Shown here: positions 304 to 9,097 of the stretch, piece after piece | How positions within the stretch are numbered: position 1 is the first letter of the stretch | Layout: every line of letters begins with the position of its first letter | DNA from: a virus | IMG/VR virus record: IMGVR_UViG_3300046660_000403 | Span: 1 to 64,000 of that record | Reading direction: 5' to 3' (one strand) | DNA: 64,000 nt | The notes under the pieces: generated by a model | Told to the model about the DNA's origin: nothing | What the model saw: the letters and a program-made list of their open reading frames with translations, nothing else | The model's database searches: none | Made by a program: the position numbers and the translations under genes

Positions 304-1215
304 TTAATTATTGCTGATGCGTTTATAGGTTTTGCTGACGAGCGATTTCAGGTCCAGGCCTTCCGGCTTGACGCGCTTGCCGTCGGACGAGGCTGGAGCA
401 GTTGGCACGGGCAGCGGCGGCAACACGCTCGGCTTCGGCGCTGGAGCCACGCCGCCGTTGTCGATGGCGGCCTGCACGCGACCCTTGAACGCCGGCATGG
501 CCTCGCCCGGATACGGTCGCAGGTTCAACTCCGCACCCTTGGCCAGGATGGAGGTGTCGCTGGCCCACCACATTCCGCCGCCCTGCTTGGCGCCGCCTGC
601 GGCTGGTTGGCGCGCGCTTTCGTTGCGGCACCAGTTGCGCCACGTGGCCAGCCAGTCGGTCTTGTTGGCCCGCTGTCCGGACAAGGCGATCCAGTGGTCC
701 TTGAACTTCTCGCCGATCTCACGGACCTGCTCGACGGTCCATTCGGGACAGTGCTGCATTGCCCAGTCTCCCCAAGCTTTCGGCAGTACCCAGTCGGAGG
801 GTAAGCGCGCAGCGCGCACCACCTGACGCTTCTGTGATGGTTCCTTGACGGTTCTGGGTGCGAGTTTTGCGGGGGTTTTTGGCAAAACCTGCGGGGGTAT
901 CACGCCGTCATCTGCGGGGTGCGGGTCCTGCGGGGGTGCATTATCTGCGGGGGTTTGCGGGAATTGCTCGGCGTGGATGAAGTACCAGGTGCGACGGCCG
1001 GCGCGCATTTCGCGGCTGATGATGCCCTCTTCCTCCAGGGCGCGCAGGTGCTGTTGCACGGTGCGCTCGCCCATCGTGCACTTCTGCGCGATCAGCCCGA
1101 CGGACGGATAGCACATGCCCTGCTCATTGGCGTTGTCGCACAGGGAGAGCAGCACGAACTTTTTGCCCGAGGACATTGTTGAAGCCCATGCCTGTGTCAT
1201 TAATGCAATACTCAT
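304..1215 (-). CDS. phage replication initiator (N-terminal winged HTH, lambda O-like position)
   Basis: KFVLLSLCDNANEQGMCYPSV...ERTVQQHLRALEEEGII N-terminus; iteron-containing linker; FKDHW...DWLATWRNW C-terminal motif. Confidence 0.8.
   Translation of the reverse strand: MSIALMTQAWASTMSSGKKFVLLSLCDNANEQGMCYPSVGLIAQKCTMGERTVQQHLRALEEEGIISREMRAGRRTWYFIHAEQFPQTPADNAPPQDPHPADDGVIPPQVLPKTPAKLAPRTVKEPSQKRQVVRAARLPSDWVLPKAWGDWAMQHCPEWTVEQVREIGEKFKDHWIALSGQRANKTDWLATWRNWCRNESARQPAAGGAKQGGGMWWASDTSILAKGAELNLRPYPGEAMPAFKGRVQAAIDNGGVAPAPKPSVLPPLPVPTAPASSDGKRVKPEGLDLKSLVSKTYKRISNN
868..954. repeat. five TGCGGGG(G)T iterons within the initiator gene; putative lytic origin
   Basis: Copies start at 868, 890, 913, 929 and 946. 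Confidence 0.65.
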
Positions 1216-2615: not shown

Positions 2616-4537
2616 GCCGCCCTCGCCATCAGAAGTTCATGCGCGTTGTTCGCCTTGAGGACGGCGACGGCCGGCGGTGGAGACACACTGTTGCCGATCA
2701 TGCGCACCTGGGCGCCCTTGGACAGCCGCTTGCGGACCGTGCGGCCCCTCTTGTCGATCGACGTGTGGAACGGGTCCAGAATGTAATCGGCGGGGAATCC
2801 CTGGGCATTGGCCAGTTCGCGCGGTTGGAGCATGCGCAGGCCGATATCGACCACTTCCATCATTTCGCCGTTGATCTTCACCAGCTCGGGCTGCGCCACG
2901 CCTTTTAGGCTCGGGCAGTACTCCCACAGGAATTCGCGTACTTGCTGGCGACGTTCCAGGTATGCCGGATCGTTCGCCGGCGCACTGGTGAGCGTCGTGC
3001 GTACTTCGCCATGGTGCTGTCCGCCGGCGCTGATGGTGGCCAGCGGCTCGTCGGTGGCAGCAGCATGGCTGGTGCCGCGCAGCTTCACGAGATTGCTGGT
3101 CACGACCGCATGGCGGTTCTCGGTGGTGATGGTCGTCAGCGGGTCCGCAGCGGCCCAGGTCGCGCTGTCGCCATAGCTCTGGTTGTCGATGGCGACGAGG
3201 TGCGCCGTCACCAGCGAATTGTGGTCGACCGTGGTGACGGTGGGCGCTGGTGCGGTCACCGGCGCGCCGACGACGCCCTGGTAGTGTTTCGCCAGGTAGG
3301 CGCAGGTGACGCCCACGCGATCCTTGGTCACGATGGTCGGCATCGGTCCGTTGGCGGCCATGTTCTGCCCGCCACCCTTGTAGTATTGCACCACGGACGC
3401 CGCCACCAGGGCGTGCTTGCCGCCACCGGCGACGATGGTGCCCACCGGGTTATGCAGATCCAGCGCGCGCGGCGCCTGCCCTTCCCGTTCACCATAGCCC
3501 ATCTGGACCATGGTGACGGCCGCGAGCGACATTTCGCCGCGATGCGCACAGGTGATGGTCGGCAGCGGATCGGTCGCAGCACTGGTGCGGTCCGCGCCTT
3601 GGTGCGTCAGCGGCTGGATCAGCGGCGACACTTCGCCGCGTGCGGTCTCCACGATGTAGGGCTGGGCTGCGTCCTTCACATATTTCTCGTAGCCTTTGCC
3701 GACGCGGCGCAGGGTCGCCGGCCGAAGTGGTTTCTTGCGCTCGAAAATGGACGGACACTCGATGGACCAGTCGATGCACTCAGCAGCAGTGCGATATGGC
3801 AGCAGGGTGCCGGCGAGCACCTGGGGCGAATTGCGCGGGCCGTGAGTGGGGGCTGGCCACACGATGGGCATGCCATCGCGGCGCATCACCATGAACAGGC
3901 GCTTGCGGATGGTTGGCGCGCCAAAGTCGCAGGCGTGCAGTGTGCGCCATTCGACCTTGTAACCCAGGCCCCGGATGATTCGCTCGATCGGGAAATCGTC
4001 GCCGAGCGTATCCCTGATCTCCGGCATGTCCGGATGATCTTCGGGCAGGCCGGTGGTCAGCGCCAGGATGAAGGCATTGAACGTGCGGCCCTTGAGTGCT
4101 TTGATGGGCCGGCCGCTTTCATCGAGCGGTCCCCAGCCTAAAAATTCGGCCACATTTTCCAAGAACATCAGGCGCGGGGCGATCTGCACGCCCCACTTGA
4201 GCACCACCCATGCGAGGCCGCGCGTCTTCTGGTTCAGGATGTTGAAGCCCTTCGCCTTCGAGAAATGCGTGCAGGTGGGAGAAAACCACACGGCCCCCAC
4301 CGGGAGGTTGCGGGTGATGAGGCGGGGGTTGGGCAGGAAGACGTCTTCGCGGTAGTGCGCCGTGGTTGGATGATTGGCCGCATGCATGGACAGCGCCTCG
4401 CCGTCATGGTTGATGGCGATGTCGGGCTCCCGTCCGAAGGCCATGCGCAGCGCGGTGCTGGCGCCGCCGCCGCCGGCGAAGTTGTCGGCGATCAGCTCAT
4501 GGCCGAGGTCCAGCGTAAACTGGTCGCGCCCGCTCAT
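2612..4537 (-). CDS. DNA cytosine-C5 methyltransferase
   Basis: DNFAGGGG, SPTCTHFS, ENV, RKR and IGNSV motifs; repeated PLxTIT units in the variable region. Confidence 0.93.
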   Translation of the reverse strand: MSGRDQFTLDLGHELIADNFAGGGGASTALRMAFGREPDIAINHDGEALSMHAANHPTTAHYREDVFLPNPRLITRNLPVGAVWFSPTCTHFSKAKGFNILNQKTRGLAWVVLKWGVQIAPRLMFLENVAEFLGWGPLDESGRPIKALKGRTFNAFILALTTGLPEDHPDMPEIRDTLGDDFPIERIIRGLGYKVEWRTLHACDFGAPTIRKRLFMVMRRDGMPIVWPAPTHGPRNSPQVLAGTLLPYRTAAECIDWSIECPSIFERKKPLRPATLRRVGKGYEKYVKDAAQPYIVETARGEVSPLIQPLTHQGADRTSAATDPLPTITCAHRGEMSLAAVTMVQMGYGEREGQAPRALDLHNPVGTIVAGGGKHALVAASVVQYYKGGGQNMAANGPMPTIVTKDRVGVTCAYLAKHYQGVVGAPVTAPAPTVTTVDHNSLVTAHLVAIDNQSYGDSATWAAADPLTTITTENRHAVVTSNLVKLRGTSHAAATDEPLATISAGGQHHGEVRTTLTSAPANDPAYLERRQQVREFLWEYCPSLKGVAQPELVKINGEMMEVVDIGLRMLQPRELANAQGFPADYILDPFHTSIDKRGRTVRKRLSKGAQVRMIGNSVSPPPAVAVLKANNAHELLMARAA

Positions 4538-4755
4538 ACGGCACCCCGCTGCGACATCGTGGCGGCCGGCAGCTGGATGTTATAGCCGGGGATGACGTGG
4601 GCCACATGGCTGCCGGCCGGCATCGTGCACGGCGCATCCAGCGGGCTCACGAGCAGCGCGTGCACCAGTCCCGAATCCTGCAAGGCGAACGAAAAGTTTG
4701 CATGTGCTTGAAGGATGGAATCGCGGCCGCCCGTCATGTTCGTGGCGCGCCTCAT
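4534..4755 (-). CDS. hypothetical protein
   Basis: ATGA overlaps with both neighbours. Confidence 0.5.
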   Translation of the reverse strand: MRRATNMTGGRDSILQAHANFSFALQDSGLVHALLVSPLDAPCTMPAGSHVAHVIPGYNIQLPAATMSQRGAV

Positions 4756-5084
4756 GCCGCCACCGCCAGCGAGGAAAGCCAGGTACGCGGCGCCATGTGC
4801 AGCGGCGGCACCGATGCGGCCGACACGCGCACAACACGTGGCCGTGGTGGCTGCGTAGGCAGGAAGTAGGTCTTGATGTCGGAGCGGCCCTGCTCATAGT
4901 CGAGCACGCCGTTAGCCTCCAGCTGCTCGACCGCATCGCGCAGATCGCACTGCTTGAGGCGTGGAATAGCGCTCAGCGCCTGTTGCAACTCGCGGATGGT
5001 GAACCCGCTTTTCGCGGTCCGCATTGCATTAATAATAAGTTCCGGGCAAAGCTCCGCCCTCTGTGATACAGTTTCGTTGTTCAT
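4752..5084 (-). CDS. winged-helix hypothetical protein
   Basis: FTIRELQQAL...DAVEQLEANGVL. Confidence 0.6.
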   Translation of the reverse strand: MNNETVSQRAELCPELIINAMRTAKSGFTIRELQQALSAIPRLKQCDLRDAVEQLEANGVLDYEQGRSDIKTYFLPTQPPRPRVVRVSAASVPPLHMAPRTWLSSLAVAA

Positions 5085-5111
5085 AGAACGTCAGTAGTAG
5101 TGGTAAATGGG

Positions 5112-5136
5112 AAGCCCGGTTGCAGCCGGGCTTTTC
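5112..5136. terminator. hairpin AAGCCCGG-N6-CCGGGCTT; terminator-like
   Basis: Perfect 8-bp stem with a T tract on the + strand. Confidence 0.55.
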
Positions 5137-5147
5137 TGCATCCGGCG

Positions 5148-5267
5148 CTATGCCTGGTGGAATAGCTGCCGGTAAGTGGCGCGCTGCCGCGTGACGCGGT
5201 CAGGCTGTTTCGGAATCGCTTCCGAGAGGGGGATGCCCTTCGCCAAAGCTTGGCAAGGGGCGGTCAT
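5148..5267 (-). CDS. 39-aa ORF coupled to the CII-like gene
   Basis: MTAPCQALAKG...; ATGA overlap with the stop at 5264; below the ORF-track size cutoff. Confidence 0.4.
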   Translation of the reverse strand: MTAPCQALAKGIPLSEAIPKQPDRVTRQRATYRQLFHQA

Positions 5268-5584
5268 TTGTATTCGTCGGGCTGGACGTAGACAACGGCG
5301 TCTGCCGGTACGACCTTCAAGCCCAGGCAGGCAAGCAAACGGACGACAAACGCGAGTTGACCGCTGGTTTTCCAGCGCGAGACGGCCGAATCATGCACCC
5401 CCATGCGCTGCGCGACGACCACAGCGGTTACCTCATTCAATCTTTGCAAAATATTACTGTTTATTTTGCGCGTGGCCGTGATGTATTCCTGCGATACTGG
5501 AAACGCTTCAAAGGCCTGCATGCGGGAAAATTCCGCCGCCTGGTCTGCGTCATCATTGCCTGCTGGGGGAACTGCGTCGGTCAT
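5264..5584 (-). CDS. CII-family transcriptional regulator
   Basis: INSNILQRL...VAQRMGVHDSAVSRWK...LLACLGLKVVP resembles lambdoid CII; AGGA RBS. Confidence 0.75.
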   Translation of the reverse strand: MTDAVPPAGNDDADQAAEFSRMQAFEAFPVSQEYITATRKINSNILQRLNEVTAVVVAQRMGVHDSAVSRWKTSGQLAFVVRLLACLGLKVVPADAVVYVQPDEYK

Positions 5585-5740
5585 TACGTGGTCCTGATGG
5601 CGTGGATTGAGTGGGACGTTGATGGGCCTTGCTCTCCGGGGACTTGCCCCATTGCAAGGCCAGCGATGCAGCGCCGGCAATTCAAGTTTCTTCGGATTAA
5701 TATAAATTTAAACTCAATGTTAAAGGAATTGGGCAATTTC

Positions 5741-5782
5741 TACAACTTATTCTTGTAGTGCCGCCTACAACGAAACGTTGTA
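5741..5782. promoter_or_regulatory. two 17-bp operators, TACAAC-N5-GTTGTA
   Basis: 5741-5757 has one mismatch; 5766-5782 has perfect arms; both lie between the divergent CII-like and repressor genes. Confidence 0.75.
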
Positions 5783-5793
5783 ACCTTACGCCC

Positions 5794-6204
5794 ATGACGA
5801 AACTGAAAGATGATGTTGCAGCAGGCTTCCTAGAGAGGCTGACGCAGCTGCTCGACAAGAAAAATAACGGCAACCAGTCAGTGTTAGCCCGCGCCATCAA
5901 AGTGTCGCCGCAAGCGGTCAATCGGTGGTTCTCGGAAGGGCATATTCCGCGCGAAGCCACCCTTAATAAAGTCGCTGCCTACCTGGGCACCACGCCGGCC
6001 TACCTCAAGTACGGCGACGGTCCGGCCGCCGTGCCCGCCACCTATGAACTGATGTACGTCCAGATCGGGCCGGAAACGTCCCTGCTGTCGCATTACAGGG
6101 AAGGCACGGCGTCAGGCAAGGAACAGCTGCTCACCACCGCCGAGCACATCGAAAAACTGCCGGCGGACCAGCTGCCCGCCAATCCCCAGTTAGCCTCGAA
6201 CTAG
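5794..6204 (+). CDS. phage repressor (XRE HTH, no S24 peptidase domain)
   Basis: NQSVLARAIKVSPQAVNRW HTH, AYLKYGDG motif; divergent from the early operon. Confidence 0.85.
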   Translation: MTKLKDDVAAGFLERLTQLLDKKNNGNQSVLARAIKVSPQAVNRWFSEGHIPREATLNKVAAYLGTTPAYLKYGDGPAAVPATYELMYVQIGPETSLLSHYREGTASGKEQLLTTAEHIEKLPADQLPANPQLASN

Positions 6205-6423
6205 GCGTAAAGCCGGTCGCGCCTTGGGCTGCGCCGCGACTGCGCTCGACAGGTACGCCTTCCGCGCAAAGCCCTTGGCCGTACGCAGCAAGAATGCCTG
6301 GTCAACTGGCCGGGCGGTATCGTAGGCGCGCAACAACTCACTGCGCGGGTCGCTTCCCACCTTGACGGCCGATCCATCCCATCCTGTTTTCATTTTTATC
6401 ATACCTCTTGAAATAATTTCCAT
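6190..6423 (-). CDS. small protein, candidate antirepressor (probable start 6393)
   Basis: AGAGGT RBS 9 nt before ATG 6393; similar to the repressor C-terminus; RPALRLVRG tail. Confidence 0.65.
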   Translation of the reverse strand: MEIISRGMIKMKTGWDGSAVKVGSDPRSELLRAYDTARPVDQAFLLRTAKGFARKAYLSSAVAAQPKARPALRLVRG

Positions 6424-6512
6424 ACGGAAAAGAGGTCAATACTTTGCCCTACTAGCAACGTTCGGGCAACCCCCGTTAACTATCATTTAAGCGCAGTGTG
6501 AGATTGTCACAA

Positions 6513-6531
6513 CTGATAGTTTAACTATCAG
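6513..6531. promoter_or_regulatory. 19-bp palindrome CTGATAGTT-T-AACTATCAG
   Basis: Perfect arms in a divergent intergenic region; extra half-site at 6476-6485. Confidence 0.6.
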
Positions 6532-6585
6532 GGCACTTCCTTACCGATAGGAAATGTTTGGAAAGTGGAGTAAACTGGCCCGGCT

Positions 6586-7779
6586 TTGACGCATCCAGAC
6601 CCCAACATGATCGGCCCTCTCACCGCCCCGCCCATTCGCCTCACCCGCGCGGCCCTCACCCAAATCGCACAGCGCCGCCTCACCGTTGAGATTGATGATG
6701 GCTTTCTGGAGCAGATCAAGCGCATCGTCCCCGCCCTGATTGCCGGCTACAGTGAGTGGTCCGGCCCAGCCACGGCGACGTCGGACGCAAGGGTTCGCTG
6801 GCACTGGTACTTCGATGAGGCGCTGCAGCGTTTTGTGGTACCACCGCACGGCGTGCAGTCGAACATCATTCTGGTTGATGGTGATGGCCGCGACGCGCCA
6901 CCCGATGCCCTGGTGCGCCTCATACTGCGCCGCATCCGCCGGCGCCACGACTGGCAGCCCTGGATGCGCCTGGCCACGCTGAACCGCCGAAGCGCCATGC
7001 CCACCGCATCCGTCGCGGCGCCGCGCGGCACCGGCTCACAGATCATGACGCCGGTCGCGCATCGTGACGGCACCTGCCGTTGGGGCAAGCAGGCACTGCG
7101 CGAACTGGAGCAGCTGCCCGACGATCGGAAATTCGCCAGGATCGCCAAGTGGGCGCGCGAATTGTTCGGGTTTCAGCATACGATGGCAGTGGCCCGCTCA
7201 CGCCATGACCCCAACCTGTTCTCTATCGAGGAAAATTTCCAGCTGAAATGGCGTGAAATCTACGAGCGCGAGCATCTGGTGCTGATCGACCCCAGGCTAA
7301 CGTGCGCACATGGCGCCACAACGTGGACGGCGCGTGCGTTGCATGCCCAGAATCCCGCCTTCTGGAACGTCGCCATGGCGCACGGTATTCGCTCGGGTTG
7401 GCTCATGCGGTCCGCCGACGGCAGCGCCGCCCTGGTGCTGTCACGCCCAGATCCGGACATCACCGCCCAAGAGTCCGCCCTGATGACGCCCAACTTGGTG
7501 ATGCTCGCCCATGCGGCTCATGACCTGATGGCGCGCCAGCTGGGCAGCGTGAAGCGGCGCGGCAATGCCCCCTACGAGAGGGCGCTGCCGGAAAATGATC
7601 TGGAGATCATCGCCCACCTGCAGCGGAACAAGCCGCGCAAGGCAATCGCGGCGATGCTTGGCAAAAGCATCGCCACGGTCGACCGCCGGTTACGTGTGAT
7701 CAAGGACAAACTGGGCGTGGACAAAACGACCGACATCGTCGAAGTGGCCGTGCAAATGGGCCTGCTCAAGCCCATCTGA
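6586..7779 (+). CDS. RsaM(DUF4902)-like domain fused to a LuxR-family autoinducer-binding regulator
   Basis: AGYSEW...WHWY...VQSNIILVD...DW at the N-terminus; WREIY...IDP...W...G ligand-pocket residues; C-terminal LuxR HTH. Confidence 0.85.
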   Translation: MTHPDPNMIGPLTAPPIRLTRAALTQIAQRRLTVEIDDGFLEQIKRIVPALIAGYSEWSGPATATSDARVRWHWYFDEALQRFVVPPHGVQSNIILVDGDGRDAPPDALVRLILRRIRRRHDWQPWMRLATLNRRSAMPTASVAAPRGTGSQIMTPVAHRDGTCRWGKQALRELEQLPDDRKFARIAKWARELFGFQHTMAVARSRHDPNLFSIEENFQLKWREIYEREHLVLIDPRLTCAHGATTWTARALHAQNPAFWNVAMAHGIRSGWLMRSADGSAALVLSRPDPDITAQESALMTPNLVMLAHAAHDLMARQLGSVKRRGNAPYERALPENDLEIIAHLQRNKPRKAIAAMLGKSIATVDRRLRVIKDKLGVDKTTDIVEVAVQMGLLKPI

Positions 7780-7780
7780 T

Positions 7781-8770
7781 TCAGCAATCGATTCCAGCGC
7801 CCGTTTTCATGAATTGCGCGTGGGAGAACGGTGTGCGATCACGAAAGCTCGCCGGCACCTCGAATAGCGCCCAGTAGTATTCGCTTTGCCCCAGGCAGTG
7901 CATGGCCGTCCGGCAGTGCTGCATTGGGTCGTCCATCTGGCTTGAATACAGGCCGTCACCGGTGGGGAAGAACGGCACCACGCGGCACTCAAACAGCTCG
8001 CGCAACAGTTCGGCCGGCGCGCCGCGATCACGCGCCCGCTCGAATTGGCGCACCATCATCGCCTCGGTCTGGACCACCATCAGCATCGGCGCGCCATCGG
8101 CGTCGAAAAATAGCAGCCCGATCGGCGTGGCGAACAGGTAGTGCTCGACAAACCCATACCTGTCCATCAGATCCCGCACCAGGGAGTTGAATACGGCATC
8201 GCGGAGAAACCCGTACGCCTCCCCTTCCAGTTTGCGGTGATGCAGCTCGCGCGAGCGGTCGAGAAAGTACGCGTCTTGCAGCCCTTCGATCTCTTCGTTC
8301 AGCCTGCTTAGGCTGGCGTCATCCCCTCGCCGAACAAATCGGTCAATCAGCCCTCGGTTGAAGGCTTCGACTACCTCCTCGTTCGCATCGACGCTGGACA
8401 ACCACACTTTTTTGCAAGGCAAGTGCGAGACGGCTTCGCACGCCTCCATGCCGCTGCCGTTGGGGCGGTTGTACTCCACGACCACGACCGTGGGCGTGCA
8501 AAAGCGGCGCGGGTCTTCGACATAGTTGTAGATGCGCTCCAGATCGCCGGCTTGGGAAAACAGTGCATTGGCTATCTGCACGGGCGCGCCGGCACGCTTG
8601 GCCCGCGAGAAGGAGGACTCCATCCAAGCCACCGCATCCGCCGCGTCGTCAAAACGACGGTGCGCCAGGGCCGGCCGAAAGTGCTCCACGTGCGCTCCTA
8701 GTGGGGCCAGTTCGTCATCGATGAGCACGGTCAGCGTGGGGTGGCGGTAGAGCGGTAACTGAGGGGCCAT
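7781..8770 (-). CDS. LqsR/JqsR-like response regulator with Glu at the phospho-Asp position
   Basis: PTLTVLIDD...PRRF..VVVVEY.RP...KKVWLS...EAFNRGLIDRFV...VEHYL match the LqsR family as I recall it; GGAG RBS. Confidence 0.8.
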   Translation of the reverse strand: MAPQLPLYRHPTLTVLIDDELAPLGAHVEHFRPALAHRRFDDAADAVAWMESSFSRAKRAGAPVQIANALFSQAGDLERIYNYVEDPRRFCTPTVVVVEYNRPNGSGMEACEAVSHLPCKKVWLSSVDANEEVVEAFNRGLIDRFVRRGDDASLSRLNEEIEGLQDAYFLDRSRELHHRKLEGEAYGFLRDAVFNSLVRDLMDRYGFVEHYLFATPIGLLFFDADGAPMLMVVQTEAMMVRQFERARDRGAPAELLRELFECRVVPFFPTGDGLYSSQMDDPMQHCRTAMHCLGQSEYYWALFEVPASFRDRTPFSHAQFMKTGAGIDC

Positions 8771-8867
8771 GCAAATCTCCAGAGCGTGGCCATCAGTATA
8801 TAGCCTTTTATACAACGCACCAAAGTGAAAGTTTCACTCAGGAACTAAACACAGCCAAAACAACAAT

Positions 8868-8924
8868 AAGACATCAATTTAAAGTTGCTATATACTCTGT
8901 AAAAATCAACTTTCAATTGTAATT
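8868..8924 (+). promoter_or_regulatory. promoter AAGACA-N17-TATACT with two operator-like sites
   Basis: ATCAAT-N5-GTTGCT at 8873-8889 and ATCAAC-N5-ATTGTA at 8905-8921. Confidence 0.6.
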
Positions 8925-9097
8925 CGGCGCCACCAGCGGCATCGCAAGAGATAAGGTGACTTTCATTGTAGGGACCGGGCGCCGCCCGTCATCCCTTAAA
9001 CGGTCTGGGGGGACTATGGAAGAAACCTTATCTGTTGCGCCTGCCAGGCGTGCCTCGGCGTGACCGCCAACCGATCACGATCACTCTACCCGGAACC

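Follow-up and report, generated by a model that had tools for sequence, protein, structure and literature searches.

A small phage gene with a conserved LRLV tail: a candidate quorum-sensing-driven antirepressor and possible tether to ClpX

Temperate phages pass from lysogeny to lysis by autocleavage of the repressor, by its sequestration with an antirepressor, or through dedicated proteases. The subject here is a small open reading frame (ORF) whose product might take part in a further route. It lies in a stretch of 64,000 nucleotides of viral DNA (positions 1 to 64,000 of IMG/VR virus record IMGVR_UViG_3300046660_000403), and "the window" means this whole stretch. Among the closest described systems are the modules that phages form from a transcription factor and a small ORF (TF-smORF modules). 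These include LuxR-driven ones in Aeromonas phages, and in them cI is inactivated, with no cleavage, by a smORF that lies about 150 nt upstream in the opposite orientation (PMC10432266). Another close system is the XB peptide of the adaptor SspB, which docks on ClpX's N-terminal zinc-binding domain; in E. coli, SspB ends in RPALRVVK (PMC8808172), as an earlier note on this DNA had correctly quoted. An XB peptide fused to a binder is sufficient to bring a target that has no degron to ClpXP, and it may stand at any position of the chain (PMC12373786). In prophage induction in S. aureus, the removal of CI requires ClpX (PMC10584840).

The small ORF is on the minus strand, between a gene for a repressor-like protein and a gene for a LuxR-type receptor (Table 1). 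The earlier note had taken it as 6190-6423, which gives 77 aa. This reading frame is present with the C-terminal residues quoted there, and its start is probably the ATG at 6393 rather than position 6423. The shorter form is likelier because of the GAGG upstream of it, because it is the choice of one gene caller, and because the N-termini of the relatives align at this point. In the predicted 5′ leader (window 6394-6440), ACCUCUU can form base pairs with AAGAGGU, the Shine-Dalgarno sequence. The fold of such a hairpin, which would sequester the ribosome-binding site, is not significantly better than that of shuffles (z = -1.4), and the terminator-like hairpin listed for the transcript folds no better than shuffles either (z = -0.03).

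With regard to coding, the frame of the small ORF has the best codon score of the six frames. This score is weak, at 0.05-0.10 vs 0.2-0.35 in neighbouring genes, as would be expected if the ORF did not code for a protein and the region were only an antisense or 3′ untranslated element of the repressor gene. Such an explanation is extremely improbable, as it is opposed by a frame that stays open in four diverged loci, by similarity at the protein level, and by codon variation in the LRLV motif that is purely synonymous. Because the same gene order and protein similarity are found in relatives, the small ORF is, by these comparisons, a genuine conserved gene of a new family.

The relatives were reached by synteny only, that is, by comparing the LuxR fusion described below with plasmids and then by aligning neighbouring genes. 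With tblastn, the fusion led to an 87-kb plasmid of Massilia violaceinigra B2 (NZ_CP024609.1; L113/L121), at 39% identity and 96% coverage. The order of genes in this plasmid is an HTH (helix-turn-helix) regulator, a convergent overlapping hypothetical protein of 82 aa, a DUF4902 protein, a response regulator, ParA, ParB and an integrase. The alignments of neighbouring genes led to two uncultured viral genomes of the same layout (L114, which is 3300049052_000033, and L120). The family consists of four loci, one each in the window, the Massilia plasmid, L114 and L120. Although diverged, all of them have a repressor, a convergent overlapping small ORF, a palindrome, a divergent RsaM-LuxR gene, a response regulator and ParAB in this order. 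The small proteins are 18-33% identical across the four members, and a BLASTP comparison of the window protein with that of Massilia gives E = 3e-6.

Direct searches were much less productive. With the small ORF as query, a word-index search of 5.8 billion proteins and a search of viral and metagenome loci returned the query itself only. An exhaustive HMMER search of 1.8 billion representatives added one match, a 3,832-aa protein that shows no aligned stretch and was taken as spurious. The Massilia small protein retrieved only itself by tblastn from plasmids, the repressor searched likewise had no match beyond itself, and nothing above 0.83 was found in the ESM Atlas. A scan of viral contigs for the conserved intergenic element, with a DNA pattern built on the third half-site of Table 1, gave the two known viral relatives and chance matches only. 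Three further loci (L115, L117 and L118) were rejected as relatives: what they have in common with the window is the repressor HTH only, their repressors are of the S24 type, and they have no small ORF with such a tail.

The most informative part of the small protein is its tail, which in the window reads RPALRLVRG. In the alignment of the four sequences, the start Met and LRLV are the only invariant columns. The residues before the motif are RPA in the window, ERQ in Massilia, RGR in L114 and PVR in L120, where the Pro is one place farther away; those after it are RG, RSRTFCR, QGGGRQSR and QASGGLRG, respectively. LRLV is thus not the extreme C-terminus in any of the four members. Its codons in the same order are TTA CGC CTA GTT, TTG CGG CTA GTC, TTA CGC TTG GTT and TTG CGC CTA GTG. 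In these 12 nt there are 5 variable sites and at least 6 substitutions, and all of them are synonymous (P ~0.0012 under random change). On the opposite strand, the same substitutions change the last residue of the repressor (N, D, N, H) and shift its stop. Because the changes are synonymous in the small ORF and altering in the repressor, it is the small protein that is constrained, and not the repressor. As judged from these codons, LRLV is under purifying selection in the small-ORF frame and is demonstrably functional, while its partner is only suggested.

The suggestion comes from SspB. Of 300 genomes sampled from the GTDB class to which Burkholderiales belong, 272 have SspB, a tally that takes in the unpublished genomes G297, G040 and G142. 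For the comparison, tails were taken from 30 diverse genomes of this class, and none of those three supplies one of them. With positions counted from the conserved Leu, which is found in all 30 tails, there is a basic residue at L-3 and Pro at L-2 in 27 of 30 each. The next positions are occupied by K in 18, R in 9 and T in 3 tails (L+1), by V in 13, I in 10, L in 5 and R in 2 (L+2), and by V in 24 and I in 6 (L+3); the last residue is K in 27. In all four small proteins, each residue of LRLV is within the SspB set at the four core positions, L-[KRT]-[VILR]-[VI], and LKLV is the core of 4 of the 30 tails. In the window, the tail fits [RK]P.L[KRT][VILR][VI] over seven consecutive positions, followed by Arg where SspB has Lys. 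When widened at its last position to R or K, as is needed to fit this protein, the SspB-type pattern has one occurrence in the six frames (128,000 residues), and this is the C-terminus in question; 0.09 occurrences are expected anywhere and 0.0016 at ORF ends. ClpX is, from this resemblance, the leading candidate for the partner of the tail.

As for the rest of the protein, Pfam, PHROG and NCBIfam scans detected no HTH in the small ORF, in agreement with the earlier note, and no other family. SspB's substrate-binding domain (PF04386) was not found by Pfam in the small ORF or in its relatives. AlphaFold2, run twice with models of modest quality (mean pLDDT 60 and 64), predicts two helices and after them a low-confidence coil that bears LRLV. 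In the linker of the small proteins, Pro, Ala and Ser are abundant and indels occur between members. Thus, the protein may be described as a helical hairpin, a presumably flexible Pro/Ala-rich linker and an LRLV peptide, with a fold that is only weakly shown by these models.

It had also been proposed that the small protein mimics the C-terminus of the repressor, in the way that SinI inactivates SinR, on the basis of a gapless match of 8 of 24 residues. The match exists, but it is not above chance: no other 24-residue stretch of the two proteins matches better, and 63 of 500 composition-preserving shuffles give 8 or more identities. A BLASTP comparison of the two proteins gives E = 4.5, and on a different segment. 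When cognate pairs of small protein and repressor are compared in the same register, identities are 8 of 24 in the window, 1 in Massilia, 7 in L114 and 2 in L120, and scores are no lower in non-cognate pairs. The family profiles are unrelated according to hhalign (probability 0.12%, E = 0.47). A decoy whose helices are homologous to the C-terminal oligomerisation helices of the repressor, and which forms a heterodimer with it, would account for the values of the window and L114 in the same register, and a helical structure is predicted or likely for the two segments. The shuffles, the BLASTP result, the counts in Massilia and L120 and the profile comparison make this explanation very improbable. 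Homology of the SinI type was therefore rejected, and the decoy is largely refuted at the level of sequence.

The presumed target of the small protein is the repressor encoded next to it. This repressor is 39-47% identical to those of the three relatives. It has no S24 domain and therefore needs an antirepressor or a protease. The antisense overlap of its gene with the 3′ end of the small ORF, which had been pointed out before, was found again and is kept in the three relatives with lengths of 30, 39 and 33 nt. In the window, the second Leu codon of LRLV is read from the strand opposite the repressor stop TAG (6202-6204). In L114, this first stop is replaced by CAA (Gln), and the repressor extends to a second stop two codons downstream.

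Some other features of the repressor end may be mentioned here. In the window it reads TAG GCG TAA, with two in-frame stops one codon apart (6202-6210). The antisense of these two stops corresponds to both Leu codons of LRLV (CTA and TTA), which are the two rarest Leu codons of the phage, at 1.8% and 1.4%. The four repressors share a C-terminal K-x-P-x3-LPA segment, preceded by E in three of four, and then differ in an Ala/Ser-rich end (LASN, AASD, LNQA and ASLH). The conserved segment could be a binding site for a partner or a degradation signal.

On the other side of the small ORF, the divergent gene encodes a fusion of RsaM-like (DUF4902), autoinducer-binding and HTH domains, whose residues 212-393 give an SdiA-type alignment in NCBIfam. 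The fusion shares 39-51% identity with its positional counterparts in the relatives. Its gene starts at 6586, compared with 6393 for the small ORF, and it is presumed to be the activator of the latter. The perfect palindrome that abuts the -35 element is unique in the window, where 0.02 are expected, and related inverted repeats are found at the same place in L113, L114 and L120. Both arms read CTGATAG in the window, as opposed to CTGACAG and TTGACAG with a spacer one base shorter in Massilia (L113:6738-6755). From this covariation, the site may have evolved together with the DNA-binding domain of its cognate regulator.

A further inverted repeat, TGTGA-N5-TCACA (6497-6511), shares bases with the -35 element and has the palindrome on one side and the -10 region on the other. 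L114 retains part of it, L113 and L120 do not; the repeat looks CRP-like, but its spacing is wrong for this. Two TACAAC-N5-GTTGTA palindromes are found at 5741-5782, just upstream of the repressor gene, and no copy of this operator is present in the promoter region of the small ORF.

Table 1. Features of the control region, with window coordinates and the basis of each assignment
Feature	Position	Strand	Basis or remark
O-like replication initiator (lambda-O-like)	304-1215		in control region
HTH_3 repressor-like protein, 136 aa, no S24 peptidase domain	5794..6204	plus	Pfam HTH_3 2.2e-8; PHROG transcriptional repressor families
Terminator-like hairpin and U-run for small-ORF transcript	6150..6182	minus	consensus scan, weak; inside 3′ coding end of repressor
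Convergent overlap of small ORF and repressor gene, 15 nt	6190..6204	both	sequence and codon mapping
Small ORF, 67 aa and stop	6190..6393	minus	likely true extent; ORF list
LRLV codons TTA CGC CTA GTT, proposed docking motif	6199..6210	minus	only invariant columns besides M1
Shine-Dalgarno-like AAGAGGT	6403..6409	minus	read from sequence; its GAGG (6404-6407) ends 10 nt before ATG 6393
Third half-site copy, TTAACTATCA	6476..6485		overlaps -10 region; conserved in all four loci
Sigma-70-like promoter candidate, GTGACA-17 nt-AATGAT	6482..6510	minus	consensus scan only; region partly conserved in L114
Perfect 19-bp palindrome, CTGATAGTT-T-AACTATCAG	6513..6531		abuts -35 element; candidate LuxR-type receptor site
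DUF4902 (RsaM-like), autoinducer-binding and HTH fusion	6586..7779	plus	Pfam DUF4902 1.4e-13, Autoind_bind 8.3e-12

In the best reading of these observations, the small ORF would be the smORF half of a TF-smORF induction module in a temperate phage-plasmid. More precisely, it may encode a small antirepressor driven by quorum sensing, whose hairpin binds the repressor and whose LRLV motif tethers the complex to ClpX for degradation; this is offered as a tentative proposal that may well be wrong. Under this proposal, the RsaM-LuxR receptor would sense a signal of the acyl-homoserine-lactone type, bind the palindrome and activate the divergent promoter. The product of 67 aa would combine the hairpin, the flexible linker and the invariant LRLV peptide. 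The position of the gene and the need of a non-cleavable HTH repressor for an antirepressor point to binding of the repressor by the hairpin. By its resemblance to a known motif, the tail may then dock the complex on the N-domain of host ClpX, where the repressor would be unfolded and degraded and the lytic genes would be freed. In addition, the two genes may interfere with each other's transcription through the conserved antisense overlap of their 3′ ends. It is conceivable, although doubtful, that the protein is in effect a natural degrader encoded by a phage. In such a case, a 67-aa protein induced by quorum sensing and provided with an SspB/UmuD-like LRLV tether would bring about induction by adaptor-mediated destruction of the repressor, and not by RecA-stimulated autocleavage or by sequestration.

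Several points weigh against this proposal, above all against its ClpX part. The earlier note had already read the tail as an SspB-like tether to ClpX. The invariance of LRLV, the selection on it and its fit to the SspB core strengthen that claim, whereas other parts of the likeness did not hold. The exact sequence LRLV is found in none of the 30 SspB cores. The Pro at L-2 occurs in only one of the four members, so that the basic residue at L-3 followed by Pro is seen in the window and not in Massilia, L114 or L120. Instead of the terminal Lys, the family has R or Q and 1-7 further residues. However, placement at the C-terminus may be inessential, because XB peptides are bound at any position of the chain (PMC12373786). 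As the conserved core has just four residues, the resemblance points to a partner only weakly, and an estimate from composition is that such a pattern occurs by chance in the last 16 residues of about 1 protein in 150. The statistics calculated for the window overstate the support, since the hypothesis arose from the resemblance itself. In addition, the host is inferred only from the relative in Massilia, the target could be the LuxR fusion instead of the repressor, and no proteolysis of cI accompanies the action of Qtip and the characterised smORFs (PMC10432266).

The explanations that compete with repressor delivery to ClpX share much of the same evidence. One, which is possible but rather to be doubted, is that a LuxR-driven antirepressor works by sequestration or by blocking DNA binding, that LRLV contacts a partner other than ClpX, for instance the repressor, and that the likeness to SspB is a coincidence. 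The architecture fits that of the TF-smORF modules in which cI is inactivated without cleavage (PMC10432266), and the likeness to SspB consists of a four-residue core around which the typical Pro and terminal Lys are not conserved. Nevertheless, sequestration leaves unexplained an invariant peptide at the end of a variable, presumably disordered linker, outside the folded part of the protein, as well as the fit of this peptide to all four positions of the SspB core.

The other competing explanations change the target or dispense with it. TraR has a small helical antagonist, TraM, and proteolysis of TraR mediated by TraM has been reported. In a role of the TraM/QslA kind, the small protein would be an anti-activator of the RsaM-LuxR fusion that damps or times quorum sensing and possibly promotes proteolysis of the receptor. 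Its gene is indeed beside and divergent from a LuxR-type gene in all four loci, and the product is small and helical. However, it has no similarity to known families in Pfam, NCBIfam and PHROG, those of anti-activators of the TraM/QslA type included, and its gene overlaps that of the repressor and not the luxR gene. Moreover, in L114 the small ORF and the repressor are intact beside a LuxR fusion that is frameshifted, perhaps by an assembly error, and such a role is unlikely on the whole. Equally improbable is that the tail binds the N-domain of ClpX without delivering the repressor, as a self-degron that acts as a timer or as a block of the N-domain that protects substrates such as the lambda-O-like initiator. 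Free XB peptide does inhibit the degradation of lambda O, FtsZ and MqsA by ClpXP (PMC3983244; PMC8808172), and the phage encodes an O-like initiator. Yet this explanation gives no role to the conserved helical hairpin, and it does not tell why the gene is kept in tight linkage with those of the repressor and LuxR.

In L114, the fusion is split into overlapping ORFs 3941-4627 and 4276-5172 (L114:3941-5172), with a frameshift near 4275. The split gene is either a real pseudogene or an assembly error.

The genomic setting is that of the lysis-lysogeny control region of a temperate, plasmid-like phage. The viral record, of which the window is part, has 76,831 bp with direct terminal repeats and comes from a rhizosphere metagenome assembly. 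DNA methyltransferases are found alongside the O-like initiator in the same region, and a cII-like gene is found there by Pfam and PHROG scans on the minus strand. A response-regulator-like gene follows the RsaM-LuxR fusion, with ParA, ParB and an integrase-type recombinase farther along. The phage itself encodes no SspB, ClpX zinc-binding domain or ClpP, and PF04386 has no match anywhere in it.

The likely host range, as inferred, is Oxalobacteraceae-like Burkholderiales. The Massilia plasmid is a phage-plasmid, because it carries capsid (N4-gp56-type), tail fibre and PLxRFG genes, and it is a culturable relative of the phage of the window. The genes annotated in NZ_CP024609.1 are those for an N4-gp56-family capsid, a tail fibre, a GH19 lysin, a PLxRFG-domain protein (16.7 kb), ParAB and an integrase. 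Two further metagenomes of soil or rhizosphere, which belong to other studies, contain at trace depth single contigs of 151 nt that are identical or nearly identical to the phage in window 4500-9000. Because of these occurrences, the phage is not confined to one sample. All the contigs matched to this part of the window belong to the same phage, with no diverged relative among them.

If the proposal of delivery to ClpX is true, a phage adaptor that responds to quorum sensing by passing the phage's own repressor to host ClpXP would add one more way into lysis. Even without the ClpX part, LuxR-controlled TF-smORF modules would be extended from the linear plasmid phages of Vibrio and Aeromonas to phage-plasmids of the N4-capsid type in soil Burkholderiales, and there would be a new family of small proteins with a short linear motif under selection. 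M. violaceinigra B2 and its 87-kb plasmid offer a culturable system for tests.

The modules most similar in layout are VqmA-Phage/Qtip of phage VP882 and the XRE-LuxR/smORF pairs of the Aeromonas phages ARM81ld and Apop, in which an unannotated smORF is counter-oriented about 150-200 nt upstream of the gene for a phage quorum-sensing receptor (PMC10432266). These are likewise plasmid-like temperate phages with par genes, and their smORFs also have no detectable family. In the window, the start at 6393 faces that at 6586, ParA, ParB, an integrase-type recombinase and a cII-like gene are present, and the three relatives are alike. There are also clear differences. Here, RsaM (DUF4902) and LuxR are fused in the receptor, which lacks an XRE gene as partner, an autoproteolytic (S24) domain is missing from the repressor, and the small ORF, which bears a conserved SspB-like tail, runs towards the repressor gene and overlaps it. 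The known smORFs inactivate the phage repressor (PMC10432266), an activity that is proposed here by analogy. With SinI-SinR of Bacillus subtilis, the likeness is that a small protein without a DNA-binding domain would antagonise an HTH repressor; homology to the oligomerisation helices of the repressor is what differs, as it is absent here.

With regard to the tail, the closest likeness is to the XB peptide of SspB (...RGGRPALRVVK in E. coli), also a short peptide at the end of a linker, which in the phage protein is presumably flexible. Both have the invariant L, a basic residue at L+1, a hydrophobic one at L+2 and V at L+3, and the copy in the window adds RPA. In contrast to SspB, the small protein has no substrate-binding domain, no conserved Pro at L-2 and no terminal Lys, and its motif stops short of the extreme C-terminus. 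E. coli UmuD has near its N-terminus the sequence KPADLREIV, which resembles RPALRLV and which, in work of Neher et al. from 2003, reportedly is a tether to ClpX. As may be the case here, the subunit of UmuD/UmuD′ that bears the tether delivers its bound partner to ClpXP; however, UmuD and UmuD′ are forms of one protein and the tether is N-terminal, whereas the partners proposed here are unrelated. Finally, the CLIPPER synthetic degraders (PMC12373786) are built in the manner proposed here, from a bait, a flexible linker and a peptide that anchors to ClpX. These peptides are engineered and, if the proposed delivery to ClpXP is true, the phage protein would be, by analogy, the natural counterpart of such ClpXP-recruiting degraders.

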